Source of the DNA: Myxococcota bacterium
GTDB lineage: Bacteria > Myxococcota_A > UBA9160 > UBA4427
DNA: 64,000 bases
Direction of reading: 5' to 3'
Assembly: GCA_965250285.1 (NCBI GenBank)
Contig: OZ252299.1
Location: 3,232,001-3,296,000, forward strand
Shown: in pieces, positions 3,125 to 20,385 of the stretch
Numbering within the stretch: the first letter of the stretch is position 1
How the letters are laid out: every line of letters begins with the position of its first letter
The notes under the pieces: model-generated
Seen by the model: only the letters and a program-made list of their open reading frames with translations
What the model was told of the DNA's origin: nothing
Databases searched by the model: none
Translations under genes and position numbers: made by a program

Positions 3125-5563
3125 ATGGGGCCGCTCTCGACCGACAACGCTTGGGGCGCTCCGGGCCGACTCGCAACAGCGGCGCTGTGCGCGGGCTCGC
3201 TCGCGATCACGCTCGTCACCTCGGGCGCGGCGGCCGCAAACGAGGCGACCCGAGCGCCCGAGATCTTCTCGAAGCGAGCGTGGGACGACCCGCCGCGCGA
3301 CGCCCGGCCGGTGGCGCGCTGGTGGTGGCCGGGCGGCAGCGTCGACCGCGACGCGATCGACGCACAGCTCGAAGCGATCGCGGCGGCCGGCTTCGGCGGT
3401 GTCGAGCTTCAGCCCCTGCTGCTCGGCATCGGCGAAGACGATCTCGCGGCTGACCCGCGCCTGCGAAGCGTCGGCACGCCGGGCTATCGCGCGCTCGTCG
3501 CGTACGCCGCCCAGGCGGCGGGCCAGCATGGCCTGGCCTTCGACCTGACCCTCGGCAGCGGCTGGCCCGGTGGGCTGCCCACGGCCCGCGCCAACGCCGA
3601 GCGCCAGCTGCTGATGACGCATGTCGATGTCGAAGGCCCCGACCTGGTCGACGTCGCCGTACCCGCCGCCCCCGATCAGAGCTATCGGCGCAGCGTCGAG
3701 TGGGTGCTCGACGTGCTCGGCCCGATGGATGAAGAGGCCGAACTCGTGGCTGTCGTGGCCGCGCGCGTCGGCCCGAACCGCGAGGGCGTGCCGACCCTCT
3801 CACACGCGCGAGCGCTCGAAGGCGCGGTCGCAAACGGACGCCTGCGCTGGACACCCCCGTCCGGAACGTGGCGCGTCTTCATCTTCTTCAGCAACTCGAC
3901 CGAACACTTCGTGATGGGCGGCGCCTTCCCCGGCGCCGAGGCCGACGCGCGCGTCGTCGACCACCTCGCCGCACGGGGGGCCGACGCGCTGCTCGAAGGC
4001 TACGCCGATCCGCTGCTCGCCGAGGTCGGCGCTCGACACGTGCGAGACGTCTTCGTCGACAGCTTCGAGCTGATGGGCGAGCTGCCCTTCACCGCGGCGT
4101 TCTTCGATGCGTTCGAGTCGCGCGCCGGCTACGACGTGACGCCCGACCTGCCGCTGCTCTTCCGGCGCGGCGGCGAGTCGAAGTACGCCGAGATGATGGA
4201 TCTCTTCGGCCGGCTCGGCGGCCCGGTCTACGTCGACGCCGATTCGGGCCGGGCCGAACGCGTGCGCGAAGACTACGAGCGCGTCCGAAGCGGCCTCTTC
4301 GAGGAGGCCTTCGTCGCCCGCTTTGCAGGATGGTCGCATGCACGAGGGCTGGGCCTTCGCCTGCAGGCCCACGGCGGCTACGGCGACATTCTCGACACGT
4401 ACGCACTGGCCGACGTGCCCGAGAGCGAGGGGCTCTTCGCGGGCGGCGCGTTCGACTTCTTGAAGCTCGCGTCGTCGGCCGCCCACGTCGCCGGGCGCCG
4501 GTGGGCCTCATCGGAGTCGTTCATCACGTTGCGGCTGTTCGGAAGATCGATCGCGAACGAAGAGATGCAGCTGCTCGCGGGCCGGGCGTTCGCAGCGGGC
4601 ATCAACCGCATCGTCTACCACGGCGTCGCGCAGCCCTACGTGCGCGCGGACGGCGCACGCTGGTTTCCGTTCTCGGGCGGCTTCGGACGCATCCTCGCGG
4701 GCCCTCTGCCGATGTCACTCGACGTCGACGCCGCGCGGCTCGCCGCGATTGTGCCCTTCAATCGAGCGCTGGCGCGGTCGGCGGTCGCGATGAGCAGCGG
4801 CGACCCGGCGAGCGACGTCGCGTGGCTGCATCCCGACGCGACCTACCCCGACGCGGCGAGTCTGCAGCTCGGCCGCATCGAAGCCCATGCCGGCGAGTCG
4901 ACCCCGACTGCGGCACTCCGTGCGCGCGGTCTGACCCACGATCGCGTGAGTCGGCGCATGCTCACAGGCGCCCAGCCCGACGGCGACGGCTTCAGAGTCG
5001 GGGCGATGCGCTATCGCGCGCTCCTGGTCGACCCGCTCGACGTCGCCGAGCCCGAGCTCGTCGAAGCGATGGCTCGGATCGCCGAGCACGGCGTGCCCGT
5101 GTTCACGCTCGGGCAGCTGCCCGCGCGCGCCCCGGGGCTGCACGACGCCGACGGGCGCGACGCGCGCGTGCGCTCGGCGCGCAAGCGCCTCGAGGCCCAC
5201 GCGCAGCGCGTGGCCCCCGAGGCGCTCGAAGCGGCGCTCGCGCGCCGCGTTCGCGGCGATCTCGTTGCGCCAGCAGGGAACGAGCAGCTCACGGTCTCTC
5301 TCGCTCGGCGCACCCACCCGCACGGCGACACGCTGCTCGTCTTCAACGAGTCGTGGTCGCCCACTTCGGCACAGCTGCGCTTCGTTCGCAGCGGCCACGA
5401 TCTCACCCGCTGGAACCCCGAAACCGGTGCCCCCACACAGTTGCGTGCCCGGGTCGAATCGGGCGACGTCGTTTCCGTCCCACTCGAGCCGGCCGCGTGG
5501 ACGATCCTCACCCTCGGTCGCACGACCAACCCGGCCGGTCGGGGCCGCGACGACAGCCCGTAG
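3125..5563 (+). CDS. Secreted glycoside hydrolase, GH106 (alpha-L-rhamnosidase-like)
   Basis: Signal-like N-terminus, RPVARWWWPGG, GFGGVE, DLTLGSGWP, FVDSFE, DVPESE, KLASSAAHVAG and GINRIVYHG. Start uncertain (3101 or 3125). Confidence 0.8.
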   Translation: MGPLSTDNAWGAPGRLATAALCAGSLAITLVTSGAAAANEATRAPEIFSKRAWDDPPRDARPVARWWWPGGSVDRDAIDAQLEAIAAAGFGGVELQPLLLGIGEDDLAADPRLRSVGTPGYRALVAYAAQAAGQHGLAFDLTLGSGWPGGLPTARANAERQLLMTHVDVEGPDLVDVAVPAAPDQSYRRSVEWVLDVLGPMDEEAELVAVVAARVGPNREGVPTLSHARALEGAVANGRLRWTPPSGTWRVFIFFSNSTEHFVMGGAFPGAEADARVVDHLAARGADALLEGYADPLLAEVGARHVRDVFVDSFELMGELPFTAAFFDAFESRAGYDVTPDLPLLFRRGGESKYAEMMDLFGRLGGPVYVDADSGRAERVREDYERVRSGLFEEAFVARFAGWSHARGLGLRLQAHGGYGDILDTYALADVPESEGLFAGGAFDFLKLASSAAHVAGRRWASSESFITLRLFGRSIANEEMQLLAGRAFAAGINRIVYHGVAQPYVRADGARWFPFSGGFGRILAGPLPMSLDVDAARLAAIVPFNRALARSAVAMSSGDPASDVAWLHPDATYPDAASLQLGRIEAHAGESTPTAALRARGLTHDRVSRRMLTGAQPDGDGFRVGAMRYRALLVDPLDVAEPELVEAMARIAEHGVPVFTLGQLPARAPGLHDADGRDARVRSARKRLEAHAQRVAPEALEAALARRVRGDLVAPAGNEQLTVSLARRTHPHGDTLLVFNESWSPTSAQLRFVRSGHDLTRWNPETGAPTQLRARVESGDVVSVPLEPAAWTILTLGRTTNPAGRGRDDSP

Positions 5564-5730
5564 CGACCCGCTCGCGCCCTGATCGAAGGCCTTGCACGGG
5601 TCGGACGGAACGACTTGCCACCGGCGCGCGCAAGCTCGAAGCTCCGGCCGCGCACCCCAACGGAGAACGTCCCTTCGATGCACCCCGAGCCGAGGCACCC
5701 TGGCGCGCATCCGCGCGGCGGCGTGCGCCG

Positions 5731-7431
5731 ATGAGCCGCTCGACCCCCGCGCCCGGGCCGCGCCTTCGCGGCGCACGAACGCACCGGTGGGCTCGCGCTG
5801 CCGCGAGCCTGTTCGTGCTCGCTTCACTCGCCTGCGCCCAGAAGGGTGGACCGGTCGATCCGATCGGTCCCGACCTGATGCAGGAGCTGCCCTCGGACGC
5901 TGAAGACATCGAGATCTTCGGCGGCATCCCGCTGAACGGCCTGCGCTTCATCGGCACGCACAACTCGTACCACCTGTGGCCGCGCCTGTTCGGCCTGCCG
6001 TTTCTGCCGATCGCGTTCTCGGCGAAGCATCGCTACGCGCAGCCGCCGCTCGGTGAGCAGCTCGACGGTGTGCCGGGTGGCCCGGGCGCCGTGCGACAGA
6101 TCGAGCTCGACCTGCACATGCGCCGCTTCGACGACTCGATCCGGGTGCTGCACGTGCCGTGGATCGACAACCACACGAGCTGCAAGACCCTGCAGATCTG
6201 CCTCGAGCAGGTCATGGACTGGTCCGAGAAACGCGGCGGGGTGCACGCCCCGGTTCTCATCTGGCTCGAGCCCAAGGACAAGACGCCCATCGACCGCTGG
6301 ATGTCGCTCGGCTTCTACGAGCGCGTCGACCTGATGCGCGTCGAAGAGGCGGTGTTCGAGGTCATCCCACGAGAACGCATCCTCATGCCGGATGACCTTC
6401 GGCGCGGCGAGCGCACGCTGCCCGACGCCATCACTCATCATGGCTGGCCCACACTCGATGCGCTCGAAGGCAAGTTCATCTTCGCGCTGCTCGACGAGAG
6501 CGAGCATCGACAGGAGTACGTCGGGCTGAGCCCGCTGCGCAATCTCGAAGGCCGGCTCATGTTCGTGCGCTCGAGCGCACCGACCGAGCCCTGGGCCGCG
6601 ACGTTCAAGATCGACAACTCGGTGCCGACCCTCGAAGACATGCAGGTCTTCGGGCAAGAGGCCCTCGCCGATCCCGAGCTCGCGGCCCTGCAGGTGTACC
6701 CCGAGCCCCCGACGACCGACAACGCGTTCGTCGCCTGGTGGAAGAACCTGTGGCTGATCGCGCAAGGCCAAGGCGACGAGACGGGGTCGAGCGAGAACGA
6801 AGACGAGGACGCAGCCCGACAGAACCGGTCGAAGGGCGATACCGAGCCCTCGCCCGACAGGCAGAGCGTGGTCAACGGCGAGCCCTCAGCCGATGCTGAT
6901 GCCGGCGCAGAGAAAGACCTCACGAGCGAAGCCAAGGCGCCGACGCCCGAGGTCGATTGGCGGCTGCGTCGCGAGCTGCGCTCGGTCTCGTTCGACACGC
7001 GCGACGAGGCGCGCCAGCGTCACCTCGAAGCCGTCGATGCGCTCGAAGAGCGGATGCGCGCCGAGGTCGCGCCCGAGAGCGAGGATCTCGCCATCGTGCT
7101 CGAGAACGCGCGGCGATCGCGCGACTACCGGGACGTGCTGCGCGAGCGCCTGCGCGGCTTCATCGGCGACCACCGTCGCGCGCGAATCCTCGCGCTCGTG
7201 CGCGACGGTTTCCTCGTCACGACGACCGCCGACGACCCCCACCGCGACGCCGACACCAACCGCCGCGTCGCGCTCTCGTCGCTGCTCTCGGGCGCTCAGT
7301 ACGTGAGCACGAACGCGCTGACGCCGAGCGCGCGAGATGGCTATCTGCTCGAGGTGCCCGGCGCTTCGATCCGCTGCAACGTGCTCGTCGACCCCGACGG
7401 CTGCGCCAACGCCGTCGACGACGAGCGCTGA
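5731..7431 (+). CDS. Ca2+-dependent PI-PLC-like phosphodiesterase, probable lipoprotein, with a large internal insertion
   Basis: Lipobox-like SLAC, IGTHNSYH, VRQIELDLH, HAPVLIWLEPKD, GWPTLDALEGK and SGAQYVST. The true start is the ATG at 5731 inside the long 3868 ORF. Confidence 0.8.
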   Translation: MSRSTPAPGPRLRGARTHRWARAAASLFVLASLACAQKGGPVDPIGPDLMQELPSDAEDIEIFGGIPLNGLRFIGTHNSYHLWPRLFGLPFLPIAFSAKHRYAQPPLGEQLDGVPGGPGAVRQIELDLHMRRFDDSIRVLHVPWIDNHTSCKTLQICLEQVMDWSEKRGGVHAPVLIWLEPKDKTPIDRWMSLGFYERVDLMRVEEAVFEVIPRERILMPDDLRRGERTLPDAITHHGWPTLDALEGKFIFALLDESEHRQEYVGLSPLRNLEGRLMFVRSSAPTEPWAATFKIDNSVPTLEDMQVFGQEALADPELAALQVYPEPPTTDNAFVAWWKNLWLIAQGQGDETGSSENEDEDAARQNRSKGDTEPSPDRQSVVNGEPSADADAGAEKDLTSEAKAPTPEVDWRLRRELRSVSFDTRDEARQRHLEAVDALEERMRAEVAPESEDLAIVLENARRSRDYRDVLRERLRGFIGDHRRARILALVRDGFLVTTTADDPHRDADTNRRVALSSLLSGAQYVSTNALTPSARDGYLLEVPGASIRCNVLVDPDGCANAVDDER

Positions 7432-10020: not shown

Positions 10021-10512
10021 ATGAAGCCCTGCGCGTTGATCCTGTCGATCCTGCTCACGATCGCGAGCAACCCGGCCTGGGCCGATGACGAGATCGTCTC
10101 GGGCCCCGACCGGCGCCACGAACTGGACCTTCGGATCAAAGAGATCGAAACCGAGCGAGATCAGATCTCGGTCGCGGCACCGGCGGTCTACACCTTCATT
10201 GGGCTCGGCATCGCCGCGGTCGGGGCTTTGGTTCTCGGAGGCGGGATCGCCCGCAACAACGATCCCGACGGCTCGCCTTCAGGCACCGCTGCCATTGGCG
10301 GCGGCGCGGCGCTCATCGCCATTGGCGGTGTGACCAGCTTCATCAGCGGCACCGTATGGAGTCGCCGCTCCGACAAGCGCAATGCGCTCGATGCCGAGCG
10401 CGAGTCGCTCATCAAAGAGCGCGGGACGCTCAGCGAAACGCTCTCCCGCGTCGAGATCCGAAGCCCACACCGTGACGGCACCCAGTTCGTGACGCTCGGC
10501 GTTCGCTTCTGA
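10021..10512 (+). CDS. Tandem paralog 1: secreted protein with Gly-rich hydrophobic hairpin and C-terminal beta-signal-like FVTLGVRF
   Basis: Signal peptide MKPCALILS...PAWA, GGAGA RBS, clear homology to the next four ORFs. Confidence 0.85.
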   Translation: MKPCALILSILLTIASNPAWADDEIVSGPDRRHELDLRIKEIETERDQISVAAPAVYTFIGLGIAAVGALVLGGGIARNNDPDGSPSGTAAIGGGAALIAIGGVTSFISGTVWSRRSDKRNALDAERESLIKERGTLSETLSRVEIRSPHRDGTQFVTLGVRF

Positions 10513-10666
10513 GACAGCGCGCTCTTGGGGCTGCACGATGCGAGGGCCGCACCCGCCCCATCAGCTCACCAGAGACACGCCTTCGCGGCATTCATTCTTG
10601 ATCGGCATGCGACGATCGACATCGAATCGACCCTCGAACGCCGATTCGGTCTGGGAGGAAAGCTCG

Positions 10667-11149
10667 ATGAAGCCCTGCGCGTTGATCCTGTCGATCGTCG
10701 TGACTCTGACCGGCAGCCCTGCTTGGGCCAACGACGAAGTGCTCCTACCGACCGACGTTCGCAGGTACATCGACCTCCGCGTAGAGGAGCTCGATGCCGA
10801 GCGCGATCAGATCTCGACGACAGGACCGCAGCTGGCCACGATCTTCGGCGTTCTGGGGGTCGTGGGCGGCACGGTGGCGCTGCTCGCTGCGCCACAGGCC
10901 ACGAACGACGAGAACGCTCCAGTCGGCGCCATCACAGCGGGCTTGATGCTCATGACGGCGGGCGGCGCCTCGACGGTCGTCGGCGCGATCTTGTGGGGAA
11001 AGCGTGCGAAACGGCGCCGAACGATCGACGCCGAGCGCGAGCTGCTGATCAAGGAGCGCAACGCCATCACCGAGTCGCTCTCGCGGATCGAGCTGAGCGC
11101 CCCGTTCCGCGACGGCACCCATTTCGTCACGCTCGGCGTTCGATTCTGA
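10667..11149 (+). CDS. Tandem paralog 2
   Basis: MKPCALILS start after GGAGG; ends RDGTHFVTLGVRF. Confidence 0.85.
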   Translation: MKPCALILSIVVTLTGSPAWANDEVLLPTDVRRYIDLRVEELDAERDQISTTGPQLATIFGVLGVVGGTVALLAAPQATNDENAPVGAITAGLMLMTAGGASTVVGAILWGKRAKRRRTIDAERELLIKERNAITESLSRIELSAPFRDGTHFVTLGVRF

Positions 11150-11304
11150 GACCGAATGGCGTCTGACTTTCGAACATCGAAGCGGTCCATCCGCGCCACG
11201 CCTTCAAGGGCGATGAGGTTTCGGATCACACATCCACATTCGGCCGCAACGAACGACATCGAAACCGCCCTCGGGCATCGACTTCGTTCAGGGAGAGAAC
11301 CTCG

Positions 11305-11799
11305 ATGAAGACCTGCGCGTTGATGTTGTCGCTCATTTTTTCCCTCGCCAGCTGCCCGGCATGGGCGAACGACGAAGCGCTGGCGCCGACGGACGTTCGC
11401 AGGCACATCGACCTGCGCCTCAAGCTGCTCGATTACAAGCGCGAGCAGATCTCGACGACGGCGCCAAAGGTGGCGACGTTCGCGGGCATCGGAGGGTTGC
11501 TGGGCGGTGCGATCGCGATCGTCGTCGCAACGCAGGGGTGCCGAAGCGCCGACCGCTCTTGCGGAGACCGCTGGGGTGCATCCATTGCAGGGATCACCTT
11601 GCTCTCGGTCGGCGGCGTCACGACGCTCATCAGCGGCATCGTGTGGGGCACGCGGGTCAAGCAACGCAACAAGATCGATGCCGAGCGAGAGCTGCTGATC
11701 AAGGAGCGCAACGCCATCACCGAGTCGCTCTCGCGCATCGAGCTGAACACCCCTTTCCGCGACGGCACCCAGTTCGTGACGCTCGGCGTCCGGTTCTGA
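11305..11799 (+). CDS. Tandem paralog 3
   Basis: MKTCALMLS start; Cys-pair loop; ends RDGTQFVTLGVRF. Confidence 0.85.
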   Translation: MKTCALMLSLIFSLASCPAWANDEALAPTDVRRHIDLRLKLLDYKREQISTTAPKVATFAGIGGLLGGAIAIVVATQGCRSADRSCGDRWGASIAGITLLSVGGVTTLISGIVWGTRVKQRNKIDAERELLIKERNAITESLSRIELNTPFRDGTQFVTLGVRF

Positions 11800-11952
11800 G
11801 ACCGCCTCGCGCCTGATCGACGCGCGTCGAAGCGGGCCATCGACCCAATGACCTCACCCACGAAACGGCTTCAAGTCACGCATCCATCTTCGGCCCTACA
11901 GAATGACATCGAGCCCGGCTCGGGCACCGACTTCATTCAGGAGGCAACACCG

Positions 11953-12447
11953 ATGAAGACCTGCGCCCTCATTCTCTCGATCGTGATGACCCTCGCAAGC
12001 GCCCCAGCTTGGGCGCTCGACGACGTCGCAACCCGACCCGACCGCCGCCATGAGATCGACCTGCGCATCGAGGCCCTCGAGGCCGAGCGCGAGGAGATCT
12101 CGACCAAAGGCCCCAAGGTGGCCACGATCTTCGGGATCACATCCCTCCTGAGTGGCGTGGGTGCGTTGGCTTCGCTCGCCCGACCGTGTCGCGAGGCATT
12201 CGATGAATGCGCACCCCGCGTGGGCGCAGGCGTCACCGGGATCACATTGTTCGGCGTCGGCGGCATCTCGACCATCGTCGGCGGCCTCCTCTGGAACAAG
12301 CGCGCGAAACGTCGCCGCGCCATCGAGGCGGAGCGTGAAGCGCTGATGCACGAGCGCGAGGCGCTCGCCGAGGCGCTGTCGCGCATCGAGCTGAGCACCC
12401 CGTTCCGCGACGGTGCCCGGTTCGTGACGCTCGGCTTCACCTTCTGA
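11953..12447 (+). CDS. Tandem paralog 4
   Basis: MKTCALILS start after AGGAGG; Cys-pair loop; ends RDGARFVTLGFTF. Confidence 0.85.
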   Translation: MKTCALILSIVMTLASAPAWALDDVATRPDRRHEIDLRIEALEAEREEISTKGPKVATIFGITSLLSGVGALASLARPCREAFDECAPRVGAGVTGITLFGVGGISTIVGGLLWNKRAKRRRAIEAEREALMHEREALAEALSRIELSTPFRDGARFVTLGFTF

Positions 12448-12510
12448 AACGCGTCGATCGATCAGCCGAAACCCGAATCACCGAACGGAACTGTCTTGGA
12501 GAATCGAATC

Positions 12511-13023
12511 GTGAAGTCGTGCGCCCTGCTCTTGTCGCTCCTCCTGACCTTCATCAGCGGCCCCGCCTGGGCGGAGGAATCGCTGGTCACCGGGCCCGAT
12601 CGTCGCCAAGAGATCGATCTGCGCCTCGAGTCGCTCGACGCCGAACGCGCGAAGATCTCGACGCGCGGGCCTGCGATCGGAACGGCCGTCGGGCTGGGCA
12701 CGGTCGCCCTGGGCGGGGTCTTGCTCGGCGTCGGGGTCGCTCAGTGCGACGGGCGAGCGAGCGAATACGGACCGTGTACCGGCCCAGGCTCGGGGATCGG
12801 CGCACAGGTCGGCGGCGTCGTCATGATGATCGCGGGCGGCTCGATCACGCTCATCAGCGGCATCGTCTTGGGCCGTCGCGCCAGCCGCCGCGACAAGATC
12901 GACGCCGAGATCGAGTCGCTCATCGACGAACGAAAGGGCCTCAAGGCCACGCTCTCACGGCTCGAGCTGAAGAGCCCCCACCGCAACGGCACTCAGTTCG
13001 TGACGCTCGGGTTCGACTTCTAG
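12511..13023 (+). CDS. Tandem paralog 5
   Basis: GTG start (MKSCALLLS) after GGAGA; Cys-pair loop; ends RNGTQFVTLGFDF. Confidence 0.85.
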   Translation: MKSCALLLSLLLTFISGPAWAEESLVTGPDRRQEIDLRLESLDAERAKISTRGPAIGTAVGLGTVALGGVLLGVGVAQCDGRASEYGPCTGPGSGIGAQVGGVVMMIAGGSITLISGIVLGRRASRRDKIDAEIESLIDERKGLKATLSRLELKSPHRNGTQFVTLGFDF

Positions 13024-13083
13024 GCGGCGTCGGGTGACTCACCCGCGCACGTACCAGATCGAACCAACATGGAGACGGGCATC

Positions 13084-13146
13084 GTGAAGCTCCTTGCGTT
13101 GATCTCATCGCTCCTCCTGACCTTCATCAGCGGCGGCGCCTGGTGA
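13084..13146 (+). pseudogene. Truncated tandem paralog 6 (signal peptide only, MKLLALISSLLLTFISGGAW*)
   Basis: 27 bp (13108-13134) identical to paralog 5 (12535-12561); homology ends abruptly at TGG-TGA. Confidence 0.8.
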
Positions 13147-13637
13147 ATGACGGAGACCCCACCCCGATCATCGTGATACTGAAGGTCATGTCCGGAGTTC
13201 GTATCGACGCTTCGGACCCGATGCATGAACGGCTCCAAGCCGTCGTCCAGTTTCCGGGCGTCGACCTCGACGATCTCGACGACTCGGAGCCGCCCTTCTT
13301 CACGTATCTCCCAGAAGTCGTTGCTCACACGTCCGACGAGGACTTCTGTGCGGCGCGCGACGAGCTGCGAGAGCTTCTGAGGCTCGCCGATCCGGTGGCC
13401 GAGAAGATCGGCGATCGGCTGCATCCGCTCGCTGCCAGGGTCGCCCTCAGCTACCGCGAGGACTTCGACCCGTTCATGTGCAAGCTGCTCGTGATCACCT
13501 GGGCGGGGTTCAGGCAGGTCGAGCATGGACGCGAGCAATACACTCGCGCGCGCGACTGGCTCGTGACGACGAATGCGCTCACGGAGCGACCGCAGCTATC
13601 GACCGAGGAGAGAAGCGATGCCCGTCATTCTCGATGA
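13143..13637 (+). CDS. Hypothetical protein, possibly a 5'-truncated fragment of an element gene
   Basis: Open frame begins right at the junction with truncated paralog 6, with no clear RBS; overlaps the cas1 start. Confidence 0.5.
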   Translation: MNDGDPTPIIVILKVMSGVRIDASDPMHERLQAVVQFPGVDLDDLDDSEPPFFTYLPEVVAHTSDEDFCAARDELRELLRLADPVAEKIGDRLHPLAARVALSYREDFDPFMCKLLVITWAGFRQVEHGREQYTRARDWLVTTNALTERPQLSTEERSDARHSR

Positions 13638-14844
13638 ATCACCCGTCAAGTCCGGCACACTGATGCTCCGCGGCTACGGAATCCGCATCGCGGTCGAGCG
13701 TGGATATCTCGTTGCGGAGGACGGCGTCGGCCGCGATCGACGCCGGATCCGCATTCCCCGGCCATCTCGCAACCTCGACCGCGTGATTGTCATCGGGCAC
13801 ACCGGCGAGATCACGTTCGACGCTCTGCGCTGGCTCTCGGACATCGGTGTGGGGTTCTCTCAGATCGACAACGACGGGAACGTGATCGCGGCAGTTGGCC
13901 CTCTGGGCCTTCGCGACCCCAGGCTGCGGCGTGCTCAGGCGATGGCAGCCGATACGGGTCGTGGCCTGGAGATTGCGCGGGATTTGATCCTCACAAAGCT
14001 GGAGTCACAGGCATCTGTTGTGTCTCGTCTCTGCCGAGCGCCCGCAAATGATGTAGGTGAAGCCTTCGAGAAGGCGCGGGGCGCGGAGTCGATCAAAGCC
14101 TTGCGTTCGCATGAGGCGACCGGAGCGCTGTCCTACTGGTCGGCCTGGTCGGATCTGCCGATGCGGTTTATCGGCAAGGATGAGAAGCGCGTACCCGAGC
14201 ACTGGAAGGCCTTCGTGCAGCGCACTTCGTACGTGACGAAGAGTCCGCGCAAAGCGATGAATCCGATCAATGCGATTCTGAACTACCTCTACGCGATCCT
14301 CGAAACAGAGGCCCGGATCGCCTGCCTGGGAGTAGGCCTCGACCCCGGCATCGGGCTCATGCACGCGGACCTGCAGTCGCGGGACTCACTGGCCGCAGAT
14401 CTCATGGAGCCGATCCGTCCTGAGGTCGATGCATGGGTGCTCGACCTCGTCCAGAGCAACATCTTCCGGAAGGCTGACTTCTTCGAGACTCGCGACGGGG
14501 TCTGCCGTCTCATGCCACCGCTCACCGAACAGCTCATGAAGACCGAGAATCATTGGCGGAGGCTGATCGCGCCAATCGCGGAGTACGTCGCGAAGCGGCT
14601 ACTAGTCGATCCCACCGCGGGGAGTCGCCGCACCGACAAGATCAAGCTCAAGACACCTCTCACGCAGGAGAATCGGAGCCGAGCGCGGGATGGGGTTCGC
14701 CGGCGACGAAGGCCCTCCAGCAAGCGACCGAGGCATCTGCTCGATCGCATCTGCGCCGACTGCGGGGCCAGCGTGGGACCGAGTACCGAACGCTGTCCGT
14801 CCTGCAGGCCTCCGTGTCGATCCAGCCAGACGGTGCGCGGCTAG
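13618..14844 (+). CDS. cas1: Solo Cas1 endonuclease/integrase, casposase-like, with C-terminal CxxC-x10-CxxC Zn ribbon
   Basis: GAGGAG RBS. N-terminal beta domain (GYGIRIAVERGYLV, ITFDALRWL). Catalytic motifs HEATGALSYW (E), NAILNYLY, GLDPGIGLMH (H) and DLMEPIRP. C-terminal CADC...CPSC. Confidence 0.9.
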   Translation: MPVILDESPVKSGTLMLRGYGIRIAVERGYLVAEDGVGRDRRRIRIPRPSRNLDRVIVIGHTGEITFDALRWLSDIGVGFSQIDNDGNVIAAVGPLGLRDPRLRRAQAMAADTGRGLEIARDLILTKLESQASVVSRLCRAPANDVGEAFEKARGAESIKALRSHEATGALSYWSAWSDLPMRFIGKDEKRVPEHWKAFVQRTSYVTKSPRKAMNPINAILNYLYAILETEARIACLGVGLDPGIGLMHADLQSRDSLAADLMEPIRPEVDAWVLDLVQSNIFRKADFFETRDGVCRLMPPLTEQLMKTENHWRRLIAPIAEYVAKRLLVDPTAGSRRTDKIKLKTPLTQENRSRARDGVRRRRRPSSKRPRHLLDRICADCGASVGPSTERCPSCRPPCRSSQTVRG

Positions 14845-14870
14845 ACAAGGGGGCCGAAAACCCCGCATTC
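14842..14870 (+). repeat. TIR-like motif copy C (TAGACAAGGGGGCCGAAAA...), beginning at the cas1 stop codon
   Basis: 17/19 match to the reverse complement of 15987-16005. Confidence 0.65.
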
Positions 14871-14975
14871 ACACCGAACCCAATACCGGGACGAGTCGAG
14901 GGCGAGGCGCCACATCAGCGCTAGGCCGAACGATCGCCGCACCAGAGCCAAGACGAGAGAGCGGGGCTGTGGATC

Positions 14976-15022
14976 CCCGCAAGACCGAAAGCGGCTTTGT
15001 TGGACCCCCTACCTACTATTCC
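14976..15022 (-). repeat. TIR-like motif copy A
   Basis: About 36/48 identity by hand alignment to 15965-16012 (direct); inverted relative to copy C. Confidence 0.6.
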
Positions 15023-15153: not shown

Positions 15154-15684
15154 ATGATTCGCTTCGTTGCGGCCACGGTTTCCCTGATCACCTCACTCTC
15201 GATGGTCGCCCCCGTGCGGGCCGAGAGCGCAAAGAAGGTCGACGACCCGACCGGCTGGTCAGTGGGCGGGGGCATCGGCGCCGCCGCCAGCCCCGGACAG
15301 TTCGTGCTCCAGCTGGATGCGCCGTACCGCTTCTCCGAGTTGTTCTCAGCGGCTCCGACCTTCCAGCTGCTGGCGGGCAGCAGCTTCACGCGAATCTCGA
15401 TGTCACTCGACGGAGTGGTGCACCTGAACCTCTTCGACGAGAGCGACAACGTCGTCCTCGCGAATCTGACGCCTCACGTCGGCCTCGGTGCAGGCTTCAC
15501 TCACTTCAGTGCGTTCGGCTTCAACGAAACGAATTTCCTCCTCCCTATCATCATGGGGCTCGAGTTCGATCTCACGGAGGAGATCGCGCTGACGAACGAG
15601 ATGCGGTTCAACATCGTAGTCACCAGCGATTTCGACACCTTCTACTGGTCATGGCAGCTGATCGGGGTCCGGTACCGGTTTTGA
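15154..15684 (+). CDS. Small outer-membrane beta-barrel protein (8-stranded OmpA/OmpW-like fold)
   Basis: AGGAG RBS, signal peptide ending VRA, alternating beta strands, PHVGLGAGF and C-terminal GVRYRF. Confidence 0.8.
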   Translation: MIRFVAATVSLITSLSMVAPVRAESAKKVDDPTGWSVGGGIGAAASPGQFVLQLDAPYRFSELFSAAPTFQLLAGSSFTRISMSLDGVVHLNLFDESDNVVLANLTPHVGLGAGFTHFSAFGFNETNFLLPIIMGLEFDLTEEIALTNEMRFNIVVTSDFDTFYWSWQLIGVRYRF

Positions 15685-15964
15685 GTCGAGAGCCCGAATC
15701 TCGCGCCGGTTACACAGCACGATCCCTCAGAGTACAGCCGGAGATCTAGTCCTCGAATGCGTGAATGGGGTTACTCACGTCTGCGTGAGCCAGCCTGGCT
15801 GCTCGGTCGACTTCTTCTCAGGCCACGGCCTCTCGAATACGTATGGCTACTACATTGGCCGTATCGCTACATCCTGATCTGAGCCGCGATTGAGGAGCGA
15901 TCCGCCTGCCTCTCTACCTGCTGACCTAACTAGAATCAAGATTCGAACGGATTGAGTTCAGTTT

Positions 15965-16012
15965 CCCGCAGGAGCCAAGGCGGCCCTTTTCGACCCCCTT
16001 ATCTACTAACCC
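15965..16012 (-). repeat. TIR-like motif copy B, probable right end of the element
   Basis: Reverse complement begins GGGTTAGTAGATAAGGGGGTCGAAAA; related to copies A and C. Confidence 0.65.
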
Positions 16013-16021
16013 TCAGGCGAG

Positions 16022-16056
16022 TTGACCGGAACCGACTTTCGTCTTATTTTCGCCTC
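16022..16056 (+). promoter_or_regulatory. Sigma70-like promoter TTGACC-N17-TATTTT (leaderless) overlapped by a TTCG-N7-TTCG direct repeat
   Basis: -35 at 16022-16027, -10 at 16045-16050, ATG at 16057; TTCG at 16038 and 16049. Confidence 0.6.
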
Positions 16057-17244
16057 ATGTCGACGATCCCGAAGCCCACCCTGCCTCTCTCGCAGACGCC
16101 CGCCCCACGCGTGGCCCAGACCGCTCCGGCGGGCGCCCTGCGCGGCCGTGGGGCGCTCGACAACCCCACGAATCGCTTCGAGCGGTACCACTACGACCGC
16201 GATGAAGAGGCGCTCGCGGCGATCCGCCTGGCGGATCACGTCGACGACGCGCCCGAGGCGGCGGGGCTCGACGGCGAAGACGAAGCGGCGCTGCGCCCCC
16301 ACCCCGACACCCTCTTTCTGCGCGACCCGACGCGCAAGATCCTCAGCCGCAACGCGAGCCCCGACGTGCCGTTCGACGTCAGCATCAATCCGTATCGCGG
16401 CTGCGAGCACGGTTGCATCTACTGCTACGCCCGGCCTGGCCACGAGTTTCTCGGCTTTTCGGCCGGGCTCGACTTCGAGACCCGCATCCTCGTGAAAGAG
16501 GACGCACCCGAGCTGCTGCGCGACGAGCTGCTGAAGCCGAAGTATCGGCCGAAGCTGATCGGGCTCTCGGGCGTGACCGACCCGTACCAGCCGATCGAGC
16601 GAAAGACTCGGCTCACCCGGCGCTGCCTCGAGGTGCTCGCCGAGTTTCGCAACCCAGTCGGGCTCATCACGAAGAACGCGCTGGTGCGACGCGACGTCGA
16701 CGTGCTGCGCGAGCTGACCGATCACGGGGCGCTGGCGGTCAGCCTGTCGATCACGACGCTCGACGACGAGCTGCACCGGGTGCTCGAGCCCCGCACGTCG
16801 TCGCCCCGCATGCGACTCGAAGCGGTTCGGGTGCTGGCCGACGCGGGGATCCCCGTCGGCGTGAACGTGGCCCCGGTGATCCCGGGGCTCAACTGTCACG
16901 AGATCCCGTCGATCCTCGAGGCGGCCGCGGCGGCCGGGGCTCGCACGGCGGGGCACATCGTGCTGCGGCTGCCCCATGGCGTGAAAGAGCTCTTCGAGGC
17001 CTGGCTGCGCGAGCACCGCCCCGAGCGCGCCGACAAGGTGCTCAACCGGCTGCGCTCGATGCGCGGCGGCGCGCTCGACGATTCACGCTTCGGGACGCGC
17101 ATGAAGGGCGAAGGCATCTTCGCGCAACAGATCCACGATCTGTTCGATGTGTCTTTGCGGCGCGCGGGCCTCGCGCGCGAACGCACGACGCCGACGACCG
17201 AACACTTTCGCCGCCCGCCCGCGCCGCAGCTCGAGCTCTTCTGA
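16057..17244 (+). CDS. PA0069/Rv2578c-family radical SAM protein (spore photoproduct lyase-like, DNA repair)
   Basis: GRGALDNPTNRFE, SINPYRGCEHGCIYCYAR (CxxxCxxC), SGVTDPYQPIE and C-terminal QLELF (beta-clamp-like motif). Confidence 0.9.
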   Translation: MSTIPKPTLPLSQTPAPRVAQTAPAGALRGRGALDNPTNRFERYHYDRDEEALAAIRLADHVDDAPEAAGLDGEDEAALRPHPDTLFLRDPTRKILSRNASPDVPFDVSINPYRGCEHGCIYCYARPGHEFLGFSAGLDFETRILVKEDAPELLRDELLKPKYRPKLIGLSGVTDPYQPIERKTRLTRRCLEVLAEFRNPVGLITKNALVRRDVDVLRELTDHGALAVSLSITTLDDELHRVLEPRTSSPRMRLEAVRVLADAGIPVGVNVAPVIPGLNCHEIPSILEAAAAAGARTAGHIVLRLPHGVKELFEAWLREHRPERADKVLNRLRSMRGGALDDSRFGTRMKGEGIFAQQIHDLFDVSLRRAGLARERTTPTTEHFRRPPAPQLELF

Positions 17245-17777: not shown

Positions 17778-19574
17778 GTGGCGGCCGCTCGCCCCGAAGG
17801 CGAACTCGGCCGCACGCTGCGTCGACTCGACGGCGGCTCGTACAAGGCGTACAGAGATCTGCGCGGGGCCTGGGCGGTCGACGGCGCCACCCTCTTCGTC
17901 GATCGCGTTCAGGGCGACCCGTTCGCGGCCCCGTCTCGTGTGCGTCTGCGCGTGGCGCTCGAAGACGCGGCGATCCCCGGCGAACTCCACGCGAACCGCA
18001 CGCGCGCCGTCGCGCTTCGCGATGCGCTCGCCCGATCGGTGGCCGACGCGATCGCACTGCGCGGCTGGAGCCGTCAGGGCAGCGGCAAGAGCGGCCTGCT
18101 CGAGATCGACGACGGTGCACAGACGGTGCTCGAGCGCAGCGCGGTGGTGCTGGGCGACGACTTCGTCGAAGCGCGCCTCGAGGTCGGCCTGCCCGCCGCC
18201 GGGCGTCGCATTCTCGGCGGCGCCGCCGAGACGCTCCTCTGCGAGACGCTCCCCCACCTCGCCGACTCGGCGCTTCGCTGGGGCGCCCTGCCCCAGGCAT
18301 CGATTCGCCGCTTCGTCGCGTGTGTCGAGAGTCAGGCGCACCTGCGAGATCAGCTCGCGGCGCGCGATCTCGTGGCGTTCGTCGCGAACGGATCGGTGCT
18401 GCCGCGACGCGCGGGCGACAGCGATCAACCGATGCGTGCGGGCGACGCGATCGCGTTCGAGAGCCCGCCGTCGCTCGAGGTCGAGCTCGAGCTGCTGCAC
18501 CCGGTCGACGGCGATGTCGAAGACGGGCCGAGCACGATCCGCGGCATGGGCATCTCGCGCGGCGTCACGTTGATCGTCGGCGGCGGCTATCACGGCAAGT
18601 CGACGCTGCTGCAGGCGCTCGAGTGCGGGGTCTTTCCGCACGTGCCGGGCGATGGCCGCGAGTGGGTCGTATCAGCGCCCGATCTCGTCAAGGTGCGCGC
18701 CGAAGACGGCCGGCCGGTGACCGGCGTCGATCTGCGCGCGTTCATCGACCACCTGCCGGCGCCCGCGAGCGGCGAGCCGCGATCGACCGAGCACTTCACG
18801 ACGCCGGACGCGAGCGGCTCGACGAGCCAGGCGGCGGGGATCATCGAAGCCATCGAATCGGGGGCGACGGGCCTGCTGCTCGACGAAGACACCTGTGCCA
18901 CCAACTTCATGCTGCGCGACGCACGCATGCAGGCGCTCATCGCCGACGGCGACGAGCCGATCACACCGTTTCTCGATCGCGTGCGCGCACTCTTCGAAGA
19001 GCGCGGCATCTCGACCGTGCTCGTCATGGGCGGCAGCGGCGACTACTTCGATGTTGCGGACACCGTGATCGCGATGAAGGCGTACCGGGCGAGTGATGCC
19101 ACCGAGCGGGCGAAAGCAATCGCCCAGTCGGAAGAGACGGGCCGACGGCCGGCCGCCAGCGCGGCGACCGGCTGGGGCTCTGAGCGCAAGCCCCGCGCCG
19201 AGAGCCTCGACGCTCGCAGCGGGCGGCGCGAGACCGCCATCAAGGTGCGCGGGCGCGACGTCATCGCCTGGGGCGAGCGCGAGATCGACCTGCGCGGCGT
19301 GGCCCAGATCGCCGATGCGAGCCAGGCGCGCGCGATGGCCGGGGCACTGCTTCGCATCAGCCAGTCATTGCGCGCGCGCCGGCGCGGCGCGTCGGTCGCC
19401 GACTTGCTCGACGAGGTCGAGTCGCTGGTCGAGCGCGCCGGTCTCGACGCACTCGCGCTCGATCCGCGCGACCGCGACGGCCCACATCCTGGTGCGCTGG
19501 CGCGCCCGCGGCGACACGAGATCGCGGCGGCGCTCGCGCGACTGCGCGACCTCGAGATCGAGCCGGCGAGCTGA
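17778..19574 (+). CDS. ABC-class ATPase domain protein (ABC_ATPase/DUF family)
   Basis: YKAYRDL, VQGDPFAAPS, GGGYHGKSTLL Walker A, ASGSTSQAA and LLLDEDTCATNFM. Confidence 0.85.
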   Translation: MAAARPEGELGRTLRRLDGGSYKAYRDLRGAWAVDGATLFVDRVQGDPFAAPSRVRLRVALEDAAIPGELHANRTRAVALRDALARSVADAIALRGWSRQGSGKSGLLEIDDGAQTVLERSAVVLGDDFVEARLEVGLPAAGRRILGGAAETLLCETLPHLADSALRWGALPQASIRRFVACVESQAHLRDQLAARDLVAFVANGSVLPRRAGDSDQPMRAGDAIAFESPPSLEVELELLHPVDGDVEDGPSTIRGMGISRGVTLIVGGGYHGKSTLLQALECGVFPHVPGDGREWVVSAPDLVKVRAEDGRPVTGVDLRAFIDHLPAPASGEPRSTEHFTTPDASGSTSQAAGIIEAIESGATGLLLDEDTCATNFMLRDARMQALIADGDEPITPFLDRVRALFEERGISTVLVMGGSGDYFDVADTVIAMKAYRASDATERAKAIAQSEETGRRPAASAATGWGSERKPRAESLDARSGRRETAIKVRGRDVIAWGEREIDLRGVAQIADASQARAMAGALLRISQSLRARRRGASVADLLDEVESLVERAGLDALALDPRDRDGPHPGALARPRRHEIAAALARLRDLEIEPAS

Positions 19575-19818
19575 CGGTTTCGACCGCCCCTCCCGAGTGA
19601 TGCTGACCAGCGACGCGACTTGTCCGGAGCGAGCAGCGGGCGCGCACTCGACCGGCAGATGGACGGGATTGCCCGCTCACCTCCACGCATTCGAGTTGTT
19701 CGGCGTCGAGGAATGCGAGATGATGAACGCGGACCGCAACGCACCTTACACCGCCGATCCACGCCGCGGGTCGTTCTGCGACCCCCGCTCGTCTCATGCC
19801 GCCACTGGAGACCCGATC

Positions 19819-20385
19819 ATGAAGCGCTCGCTCAAGTACGCCCTTCCCGCCGTCGCCCTCATTGCCCAGGGCATCGATGAGCCCGCCCACGCCGACGACC
19901 TGTTCCTCCAGATCGATCCCGCCGAGGGCGAGTCGGTCACGCAGGGGTACGAGGGCCAGATCGACGTGCTCGCCTGGTCGTGGGCTGCAGAGAACTCGGG
20001 CGACGCCATCGGGATCGGGGGCGGGGGTGGCGGCGGAAAGGCCAACCTCTCGAGCCTCAAGATCATCAAGAGCGTCGACGCGGCCACGCCCGTGCTGGTG
20101 ACGTACGCGACCGAGGGCACCTTCTTCGACGAAGCGATCCTGACGGCGACGCGCCAGACGAGCAAGGGCAATGCGGAGTTCATGAAGATGACGCTCACGA
20201 CAGTGCTCGTCTCGAAGGTGGCTCATGGCGGGCGAGCGGGCGACGGCGACGACGGCGTAGCCGAGACACTCACCCTCGACTACGTGAAGGTCTGCCTCGA
20301 GTACCGCAAGTTCAACACGAAGACGGCGGAGTTCGATCTGTGGCAAGAGTCGTGCTGGGATCGCGCCAAGAACGCCTCCTTCTAG
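19819..20385 (+). CDS. hcp: Hcp/TssD-family tube protein with an N-terminal Sec signal peptide
   Basis: GGAG RBS. MKRSLKYALPAVALIAQGIDEPAHA is followed by DLFLQID..EGES, IDVLAWSW, GGGGGKA, KSVDAATPVL, ETLTLDY and WDRAKN. Confidence 0.85.
   Translation: MKRSLKYALPAVALIAQGIDEPAHADDLFLQIDPAEGESVTQGYEGQIDVLAWSWAAENSGDAIGIGGGGGGGKANLSSLKIIKSVDAATPVLVTYATEGTFFDEAILTATRQTSKGNAEFMKMTLTTVLVSKVAHGGRAGDGDDGVAETLTLDYVKVCLEYRKFNTKTAEFDLWQESCWDRAKNASF

Follow-up and report, generated by a model that had tools for sequence, protein, structure and literature searches.

A truncated casposase gene that stops in a TIR relic beside a host promoter: a likely family 3 casposon remnant in a Myxococcota bacterium

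Genes and features at the locus

The window, that is, the whole stretch of 64 000 nucleotides that was analysed from the genome of a Myxococcota bacterium (G000), holds a truncated casposase gene at 13618–14844 on the forward strand. The ORF has no internal stops and encodes a protein of 408 amino acids (P0001), the window's Cas1, with a Cas1 fold, a basic linker, and a predicted Zn ribbon; the C-terminal helix and the HTH are absent. The gene is present in a single copy in this genome. A purine-rich stretch resembling a ribosome site precedes its ATG, and a further in-frame ATG is located upstream at 13573. The start of cas1 is overlapped by an orphan ORF at 13143–13637 (+; ATG at 13188), for which neither sequence search nor the Atlas gave homologs, and which is likely an element gene, judging by its position. 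Immediately upstream, at 10021–13143 (+), is a tandem array of five predicted secreted paralogs of about 165 amino acids and a sixth that is broken at 13143, likely the cargo of an older element.

Three TIR-like copies, designated C, B, and A, lie between cas1 and a host gene. Copy C (14842–14870, +) is a left-facing TIR relic, covering TIR positions of about 8–36, in which the terminal 7 nucleotides are gone and the first three bases are the cas1 stop. Copy B (14971–15022, −) is an eroded right-end TIR with the terminus GGA, not GGG. An outer-membrane β-barrel-like gene is located between B and A at 15154–15684 (+), with a Pfam OMP_b-brl match (E = 0.0013) under the cut-off. Copy A (15961–16012, −) is an intact casposon right-end TIR, and it is followed by a single 14-bp target copy that ends in TTGAC (16013–16026, +), a sigma-70-type promoter, TTGACC-17-TATTTT (16022–16052, +), and a host radical SAM gene of the PA0069 family (16057–17244, +; NF033668 over cut-off, match in 26 of 41 genomes). 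Two other ORFs of the window, at 3868–7431 (Ca-dependent phosphoinositide phospholipase C domain) and 19093–20385 (Hcp domain), are outside the element as far as seen.

The catalytic motifs HEATG, GLMH, and DLMEP, which the initial annotation had picked out, are all confirmed in P0001. The codons for E166 (14113), H249 (14362), D261 (14398), and E264 (14407), within 14113–14409 (+), specify residues that align with those of the M. mazei casposase and are invariant in an alignment of 47 sequences. The Pfam Cas_Cas1 domain covers residues 17–302 (E = 9e-43). The cysteines of the predicted zinc domain, CADC-x10-CPSC (C379, C382, C393, and C396; 14752–14805, +), are invariant in a 47-sequence alignment as well, and the four-Cys motif is found in 158 of 165 full-length homologs. 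The ribbon spacer is 11 residues in the 12 close homologs listed and 10 in P0001, one residue short. The stop, TAG at 14842–14844, follows 12 codons past C396, and the translated ORF thus reads as had been claimed. The junction at the stop is spanned without a single difference by contigs of three runs (X1, X2, and X3) from one study, of which X1 may be the source; an assembly error at this point is ruled out by these contigs.

A casposase, not a CRISPR Cas1

P0001 is a casposase, as had been proposed, and not a CRISPR Cas1. In a sequence search of the PDB, 6OPM, the structure of the M. mazei casposase, came out on top (E = 1.3e-24), with the Cas1 of A. fulgidus narrowly behind (3.7e-23). A fold search with an AlphaFold2 model (mean pLDDT 85) also placed 6OPM at the top (E = 1.2e-18 against 9.8e-16; TM 0.63/0.74). 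The TIGR00287 cas1 model scores above its cut-off for P0001, and all eight CRISPR subtype and fusion Cas1 models are far under theirs. Cas2 was not found in the genome by a search whose control was positive in 6 of 14 genomes, and a search for CRISPR arrays gave seven periodic candidates, all of them plain tandem repeats.

In a quick maximum-likelihood tree of 53 rows, in which the AceAut-C1 Cas1 and other published casposases are not among the rows and the outgroup rows were taken without a check for adjacent CRISPR arrays, P0001 and 32 family members, which are PolB-linked casposases, form a group of 33 rows with SH-aLRT support of 92. This group, together with two more rows, is split with support of 100 from the remaining 18 rows, which are Cas1 proteins from related genomes. 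One row (L243), labelled CRISPR-type beforehand, falls beside the casposases. Thus, P0001 groups with PolB-linked casposases instead of clustering with standard CRISPR Cas1.

No relative of the element with more than 58% protein identity was found. A single-protein scan of genome contigs gave no relatives, a scan of viral sequences gave one distant locus, and plasmids gave distant Cas1 only, at about 24–32% identity and mostly annotated as CRISPR cas1.

Loss of the C-terminal tail

A homolog search found 2445 proteins, and the length counts rest on the 119 listed besides the query. At least 500 amino acids are present in 98 of these 119, compared with 408 in P0001. Six of the 21 shorter ones are short at the N terminus and still have the HTH motif at the end. 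P0003, which sits on a 1754-bp contig, is alone among the 119 matches listed in stopping near the end of P0001. One ORF runs through to the HTH end in 71 of 80 GTDB loci. Ribbon-bearing full-length homologs continue for a median of 119 residues (range 86–192) after the last ribbon Cys, versus 12 in P0001. What P0001 is missing is the final 107–110 or so amino acids present in nearly all relatives, consisting of a helical segment with a DPAHGG motif and an HTH-like end.

An HMM of this tail, run against the six frames of the whole genome, found nothing (best E = 0.34). A frameshift concealing the HTH is ruled out, since no downstream frame encodes it and the genome-wide search gave no match. 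The suggestion that a distal C-terminal domain has been clipped at the TIR-like motif therefore holds, and the homologs run on past the stop of P0001 instead of ending at the same position.

The Cas1 core of P0001 is no worse conserved than that of full-length homologs. None of the 67 columns conserved at ≥95% is missed by P0001, one is missed among the 90 conserved at ≥90%, and six among the 125 conserved at ≥80%; the averages for full-length homologs at these levels are 1.0, 2.7, and 8.0 columns. With the core undamaged, either the truncation is recent or the core is still selected, and the data fit both.

The cas1 genes of three related loci (L021, L042, and L067) are also without the HTH. 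They break at other places, with no TIR at the stop, and L021 and L067 thus argue against a recurring programmed cut. The element at L067:2069–14314 retains its two TIRs, a perfect duplication, and an intact PolB, yet its cas1 has lost the HTH tail.

Element ends and the target promoter

A TIR weight matrix was built from 20 TIRs of 10 relatives, with the window's copies excluded. A ranks first in the genome at 27.1 bits, with the next site at 19.2, and B, which agrees with A at 38 of 53 columns, ranks sixth. The second-ranked site, G000:C1:2458127 (19.2 bits), is outside the window and has no TTGAC in register; it is possibly an old end. C at full length scores −1.7 bits, with 1660 sites as good, and when it is scored without the first 7 columns, 87 genome sites score as well. 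Repeat C is nevertheless no chance resemblance: from the TAG, it agrees with the reverse strand of A in 17 of 19 bases, and a third site that matches as well is found on neither strand of the 6.25-Mb genome. A pattern count of 2 versus 0.05 expected is circular, the pattern having been built from the copies themselves.

The TAG does begin repeat C, as the initial annotation had stated, but it is not the beginning of the TIR. The family TIR, which opens with GGG-x-TAG, begins seven bases before it, and the TAG of the cas1 stop occupies TIR positions 8–10. C is preceded by neither the terminal seven bases nor a duplication, so the junction between cas1 and C looks like a deletion and not an insertion. 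The proposal that an insertion caused the clipping is therefore not borne out, a deletion being more likely. C as a casposase-made insertion end is ruled out, as there is no full GGG terminus and no TTGAC-ending duplication ahead of it. In the A. boonei work (PMC6614799), the five terminal bases are described as what integration by that casposase needs; by this standard, C would not be a working end, nor the product of a fresh insertion. Behind B, there is no intact 14-bp duplication, only a 7-base resemblance to the target. A second copy of the target was not found nearby, and a site with one mismatch is 1.4 Mb away.

The 14-bp target of A obeys the duplication rule of the family (see below) and runs into the −35 box of the radical-SAM promoter. 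The −10 box is overlapped by a direct repeat, TTTCG-N6-TTTCG (16037–16052), which is kept in 19 of 25 orthologous loci. We take this repeat to resemble direct-repeat LexA boxes, and from this resemblance the target promoter may be damage-inducible. It is unlikely that A is purely a host regulatory site, because among the 25 orthologous loci, it is convincingly present only in G000 and the sister species G001, a third A-like hit (L110) being a CT-rich run, and because the TIR type of A forms TIR–duplication–TIR junctions elsewhere.

Intact relatives of the element

In 59 related loci, 7 kb or more of sequence is available upstream of cas1. A PolB-like gene of about 1000 amino acids and a small HTH-like gene each occur in 53 of them, and a small conserved gene in 52; the six PolB-less loci include broken copies. 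This prevalence of PolB rules out a small IS-like family of Cas1 transposons without PolB. The PolB label is a putative one that comes from the DxxSxYP and DTDS motifs; the Pfam match of these proteins is under the cut-off, and a PDB search gave no match. The 'HNH' label for companion cluster 3 is likewise provisional, as it is borrowed from the literature and Pfam did not confirm it. A six-frame search of the window's genome did not find PolB (best E = 0.059), and profiles of the two conserved companion genes gave nothing significant there. The HTH-tail profile also matches the C-termini of PolB-like proteins (L065:5086–7008, L067:4558–7590, and L076:19606–19965); an HTH at the C terminus of PolB is described for family 2 casposons (PMC4046053).

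Inverted repeats were obtained for 42 loci, and the 25 with GGG-type ends were kept as paired-TIR elements. They are 7.6–19.6 kb long, with duplications of 13–16 bp (≤1 mismatch), mostly 14 bp, and the two TIRs of one element are near-identical. The duplication ends in TTGAC in 23 of the 25, and TAnnnT is found 17–19 nt further in 21, which makes the −35 box of host promoters the target of the family. Full-text literature searching, as far as result listings and the openings of abstracts show, found no published account of casposon targeting of −35 boxes, and the window extends this TTGAC rule to its host group. A motif scan gave GGG-type ends in 48 of 80 loci, whereas shuffling of the same 1.41 Mb left 12 ends by chance. 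Back-to-back TIR–duplication–TIR junctions, showing stacking at one site, are found in 11 of 80 loci.

Several loci of this family are damaged or reduced. L042 is a wreck parallel to that in the window, with a clipped cas1 and no polB, between two right ends that each have a duplication. L024:8636–11335 has two broken cas1 copies in inverted orientation, with no polB, and a TIR–duplication–TIR junction at 1770–1786. L052:18445–19984, in a Chloroflexia genome, is a casposon derivative of 1.54 kb that carries cargo alone, its single gene being nadE (NAD(+) synthase, NF001979 over cut-off). It has a TIR at each end, is flanked by two near-identical duplications that end in TTGAC, and abuts another end.

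The same end type elsewhere and the cargo genes

The TIR type of A is also found in G001, L133, L135, L143, and contig C8 of G018. In G001, the end is identical to A at 42 of 53 columns, has the same 14-base register at the orthologous promoter, and is preceded by one copy of the secreted paralog; cas1 was not found in this genome, which is 83% complete. On contig C33 of G001 (L115), about 200 bp before the cargo gene, there is a break in what we take to be a truncated succinate-dehydrogenase iron–sulfur-like frame. A metagenome scan for the end type gave 32 matches, most of them unrelated. L135 and L139, the latter apparently from the species of G001, carry the same end before the same radical-SAM promoter, and L158 carries it before a different promoter. 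An element end is thus present at this one promoter in no fewer than three distinct sequences (G000, G001/L139, and L135).

L133 and L143 have TIR–duplication–TIR junctions of the window's TIR type, with the paralog family directly inside the next end; in G001, L133, and L143, the paralog copy ends about 35–150 bp from the TIR terminus. L133 has a duplication identical to the 14 bases behind the G001 end, and the one at L143:409–458 differs, so the targets of this TIR type are not limited to one sequence. In G018, which belongs to the same host family, the contig that bears this TIR type also carries fragments of polB and cas1. A search with the family-wide TIR pattern matched 50 of 68 genomes, about the rate of the reversed control, and its usable hits are those in G000, G001, and G018.

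The secreted paralogs have a Pfam match below cut-off only and no NCBIfam match. Among 193 genomes of the order, strong matches (E = 1e-56 or better) are found only in G000 and G001, and weak matches in 13 further genomes; six of the latter loci were checked, and none has a TIR of this type. A cargo family with close homologs only beside these ends hints at gene delivery by stacked casposon ends. The β-barrel-like gene between B and A is possibly cargo as well, from its position. Its nearest representative is 50% identical, and a near-identical piece of 205 nt occurs in a run of another study, which is either a shared mobile gene or the same organism at low coverage.

Proposed history of the locus

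The locus is a decayed casposon remnant, with a TIR beside the family's target motif and with core genes missing or broken. The features of an intact family 3 element that it does not have are the HTH, PolB, the companion genes, and paired TIRs flanked by duplications; what is left in the window is the clipped cas1, a pair of eroded ends, and a single intact end beside its target copy. We suggest that P0001 probably derives from a family 3 casposon like AceAut-C1, that its HTH was likely lost by deletion, and that it is now a likely integration-dead remnant in a stack of element ends.

A casposase joins the 3′ ends of the TIRs to both strands of a target of fixed length, thereby duplicating it, as described for the enzymes in PMC6977970 and PMC6614799. 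At the radical-SAM promoter, related elements would have inserted more than once, and each insertion would have duplicated the 14-bp target and pushed the older copies away from the promoter. Later deletions may then have eroded the resulting stack of ends. One of them would have run from just past the Zn ribbon of cas1 into the left TIR of the next element, fusing the gene to TIR position 8. Lost with it would be the HTH together with the right arm, one TIR, the duplication, and 7 terminal bases, and in this way the internal TAG of the TIR would have become the stop codon of cas1. This deletion was presumably recent, because the core has not yet decayed. Another deletion may have removed the polymerase side and broken the sixth cargo paralog at 13143. 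Since a single target copy survives, the number and order of the insertions are reconstructed and not read directly, and the same holds for the exact breakpoint and the state before the deletion, since no relative is above 58% protein identity. The intact core counts against a remnant, as a long-dead gene would be expected to show damage.

Is the enzyme still active, as the initial annotation thought it might be? The intact core is in its favor. Against it count the missing HTH and the loss from the element of PolB, of its companion genes, and of a second end that could be used, so that at best this suggestion is weakly supported. In the experiments reported for the M. mazei casposase, which is from a different casposon lineage than P0001, the protein without its HTH gave no integration (PMC6977970). 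With the HTH gone, integrase activity of P0001 is accordingly unlikely in our estimation. Some residual activity is conceivable because family 1 casposases, as described, have no HTH yet integrate (PMC8464041, PMC6614799). Even if P0001 were active, it has one usable end nearby and no polymerase.

The cargo may have arrived by another route. Cargo-only cassettes could have been moved in trans by visiting casposons, as the nadE unit of L052 suggests, which we consider possible without expecting it.

A history without a stack has a small chance of being correct. Here, a single casposon would have A as its right end, and local rearrangement of its TIR would have produced B and C as internal duplicates or relics, for example, when a small inverted C–B piece recombined into cas1. 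This would explain why only one target copy is found, why C and B lie 181 bp apart and point toward each other as the ends of a miniature element would, and why A, B, and C share one TIR type. However, A and B disagree in 15 of 53 columns, while paired TIRs in relatives are near-identical; B resembles the G001 end (39 of 54) roughly as much as it resembles A; and elements of the family are commonly found stacked at a single site.

It is quite improbable that selection has maintained the HTH-less P0001 as a resident enzyme, an integrase or a nuclease, that acts on the stack of TIR-bounded cargo at this promoter, which would be a natural step on the proposed path from casposase to CRISPR Cas1. 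Such a role would fit the intact frame, the zero loss at the most conserved positions, the ribosome-site-like stretch before the ATG, the reported integration by HTH-less family 1 casposases (PMC8464041, PMC6614799), the conservation of end A in G001, and the existence of cargo-only units in the family, as in L052. However, G001 keeps an end and one cargo gene, and cas1 was not found in its 83% complete genome. The 408-residue form is known from one genome, with a similar end only in P0003 among the 119 matches listed; the other HTH-less loci break elsewhere, with no TIR at the stop; C and B have no usable termini; and deletion of the HTH abolished integration by the M. mazei enzyme in the published assays (PMC6977970). 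We are very doubtful of the stronger form of this idea, a cassette array built by Cas1, in which TIR-bounded cargo is added singly at a promoter-side target by the HTH-less, polymerase-free casposase as resident integrase. If true, the array would resemble spacers added at a CRISPR leader, and the locus would be a living intermediate between casposons and CRISPR adaptation.

An orphan CRISPR-type Cas1 from a lost CRISPR–Cas locus, or an assembly artefact at the stop, is already refuted and has next to no chance of being correct, even though TIGR00287 is above cut-off and databases name the homologs 'CRISPR-associated endonuclease Cas1', by the subtype models, the searches for Cas2 and arrays, the tree, and the junction-spanning contigs.

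The likely remnant is a fossil of a described class of element and by itself matters little. As a natural ΔHTH casposase beside its own target and TIR, it makes the function of the HTH in casposases approachable in a bacterial family 3 enzyme.

Comparison with known casposons

The closest described element is AceAut-C1 from Candidatus 'Acetothermum autotrophicum', a casposon that belongs to family 3 (Krupovic et al. 2014, PMC4046053). Its Cas1 is described as having C-terminal zinc-binding and HTH domains, and its TIR, given in the supplement as beginning GGGATAGTAG, starts with GGG-x-TAG, as in the family of P0001. The duplication given there, when reversed by hand, ends in TTGAC(G), like those of the relatives of P0001. 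The target is intergenic in both AceAut-C1 and the window, the paper naming it just 'intergenic'. The intact relatives of P0001 are like AceAut-C1, with the full Zn and HTH tail, PolB, and two companion genes. The window's copy, by contrast, is a remnant, lacking the HTH, PolB, companions, paired TIR, and second duplication. The TIRs of AceAut-C1 are reported to be 602 bp, whereas about 50 bp are common to the ends here. The putative link to family 3 comes from the order of domains and from the likeness of TIR and duplication to AceAut-C1.

The M. mazei casposase (PDB 6OPM; Hickman et al. 2020, PMC6977970) has catalytic residues that align with those of P0001, and it makes a 14-bp duplication. 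Its engineered ΔHTH form resembles the natural truncation of P0001. However, it is archaeal, is 26% identical to P0001, and has another target motif, given as CGCA; it has no Zn ribbon in the aligned stretch, which ends at residue 306.

Tandem casposon insertion and solo-TIRs have been published for Methanosarcina (Krupovic et al. 2016, PMC4779613). The likeness to the window is in the reuse of one target, the inactivation of older copies, and the lone TIRs beside the target. Unlike in Methanosarcina, the target here is a bacterial −35 box before a radical-SAM gene, and cargo survives between the eroded ends.

The family 1 casposase of Ca. Nitrosopumilus koreensis, as described in PMC8464041 and PMC6614799, has an intact active site and no C-terminal HTH, like P0001. 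There, the HTH is absent family-wide and the element is complete, whereas P0001 has a private truncation within an HTH-bearing family.
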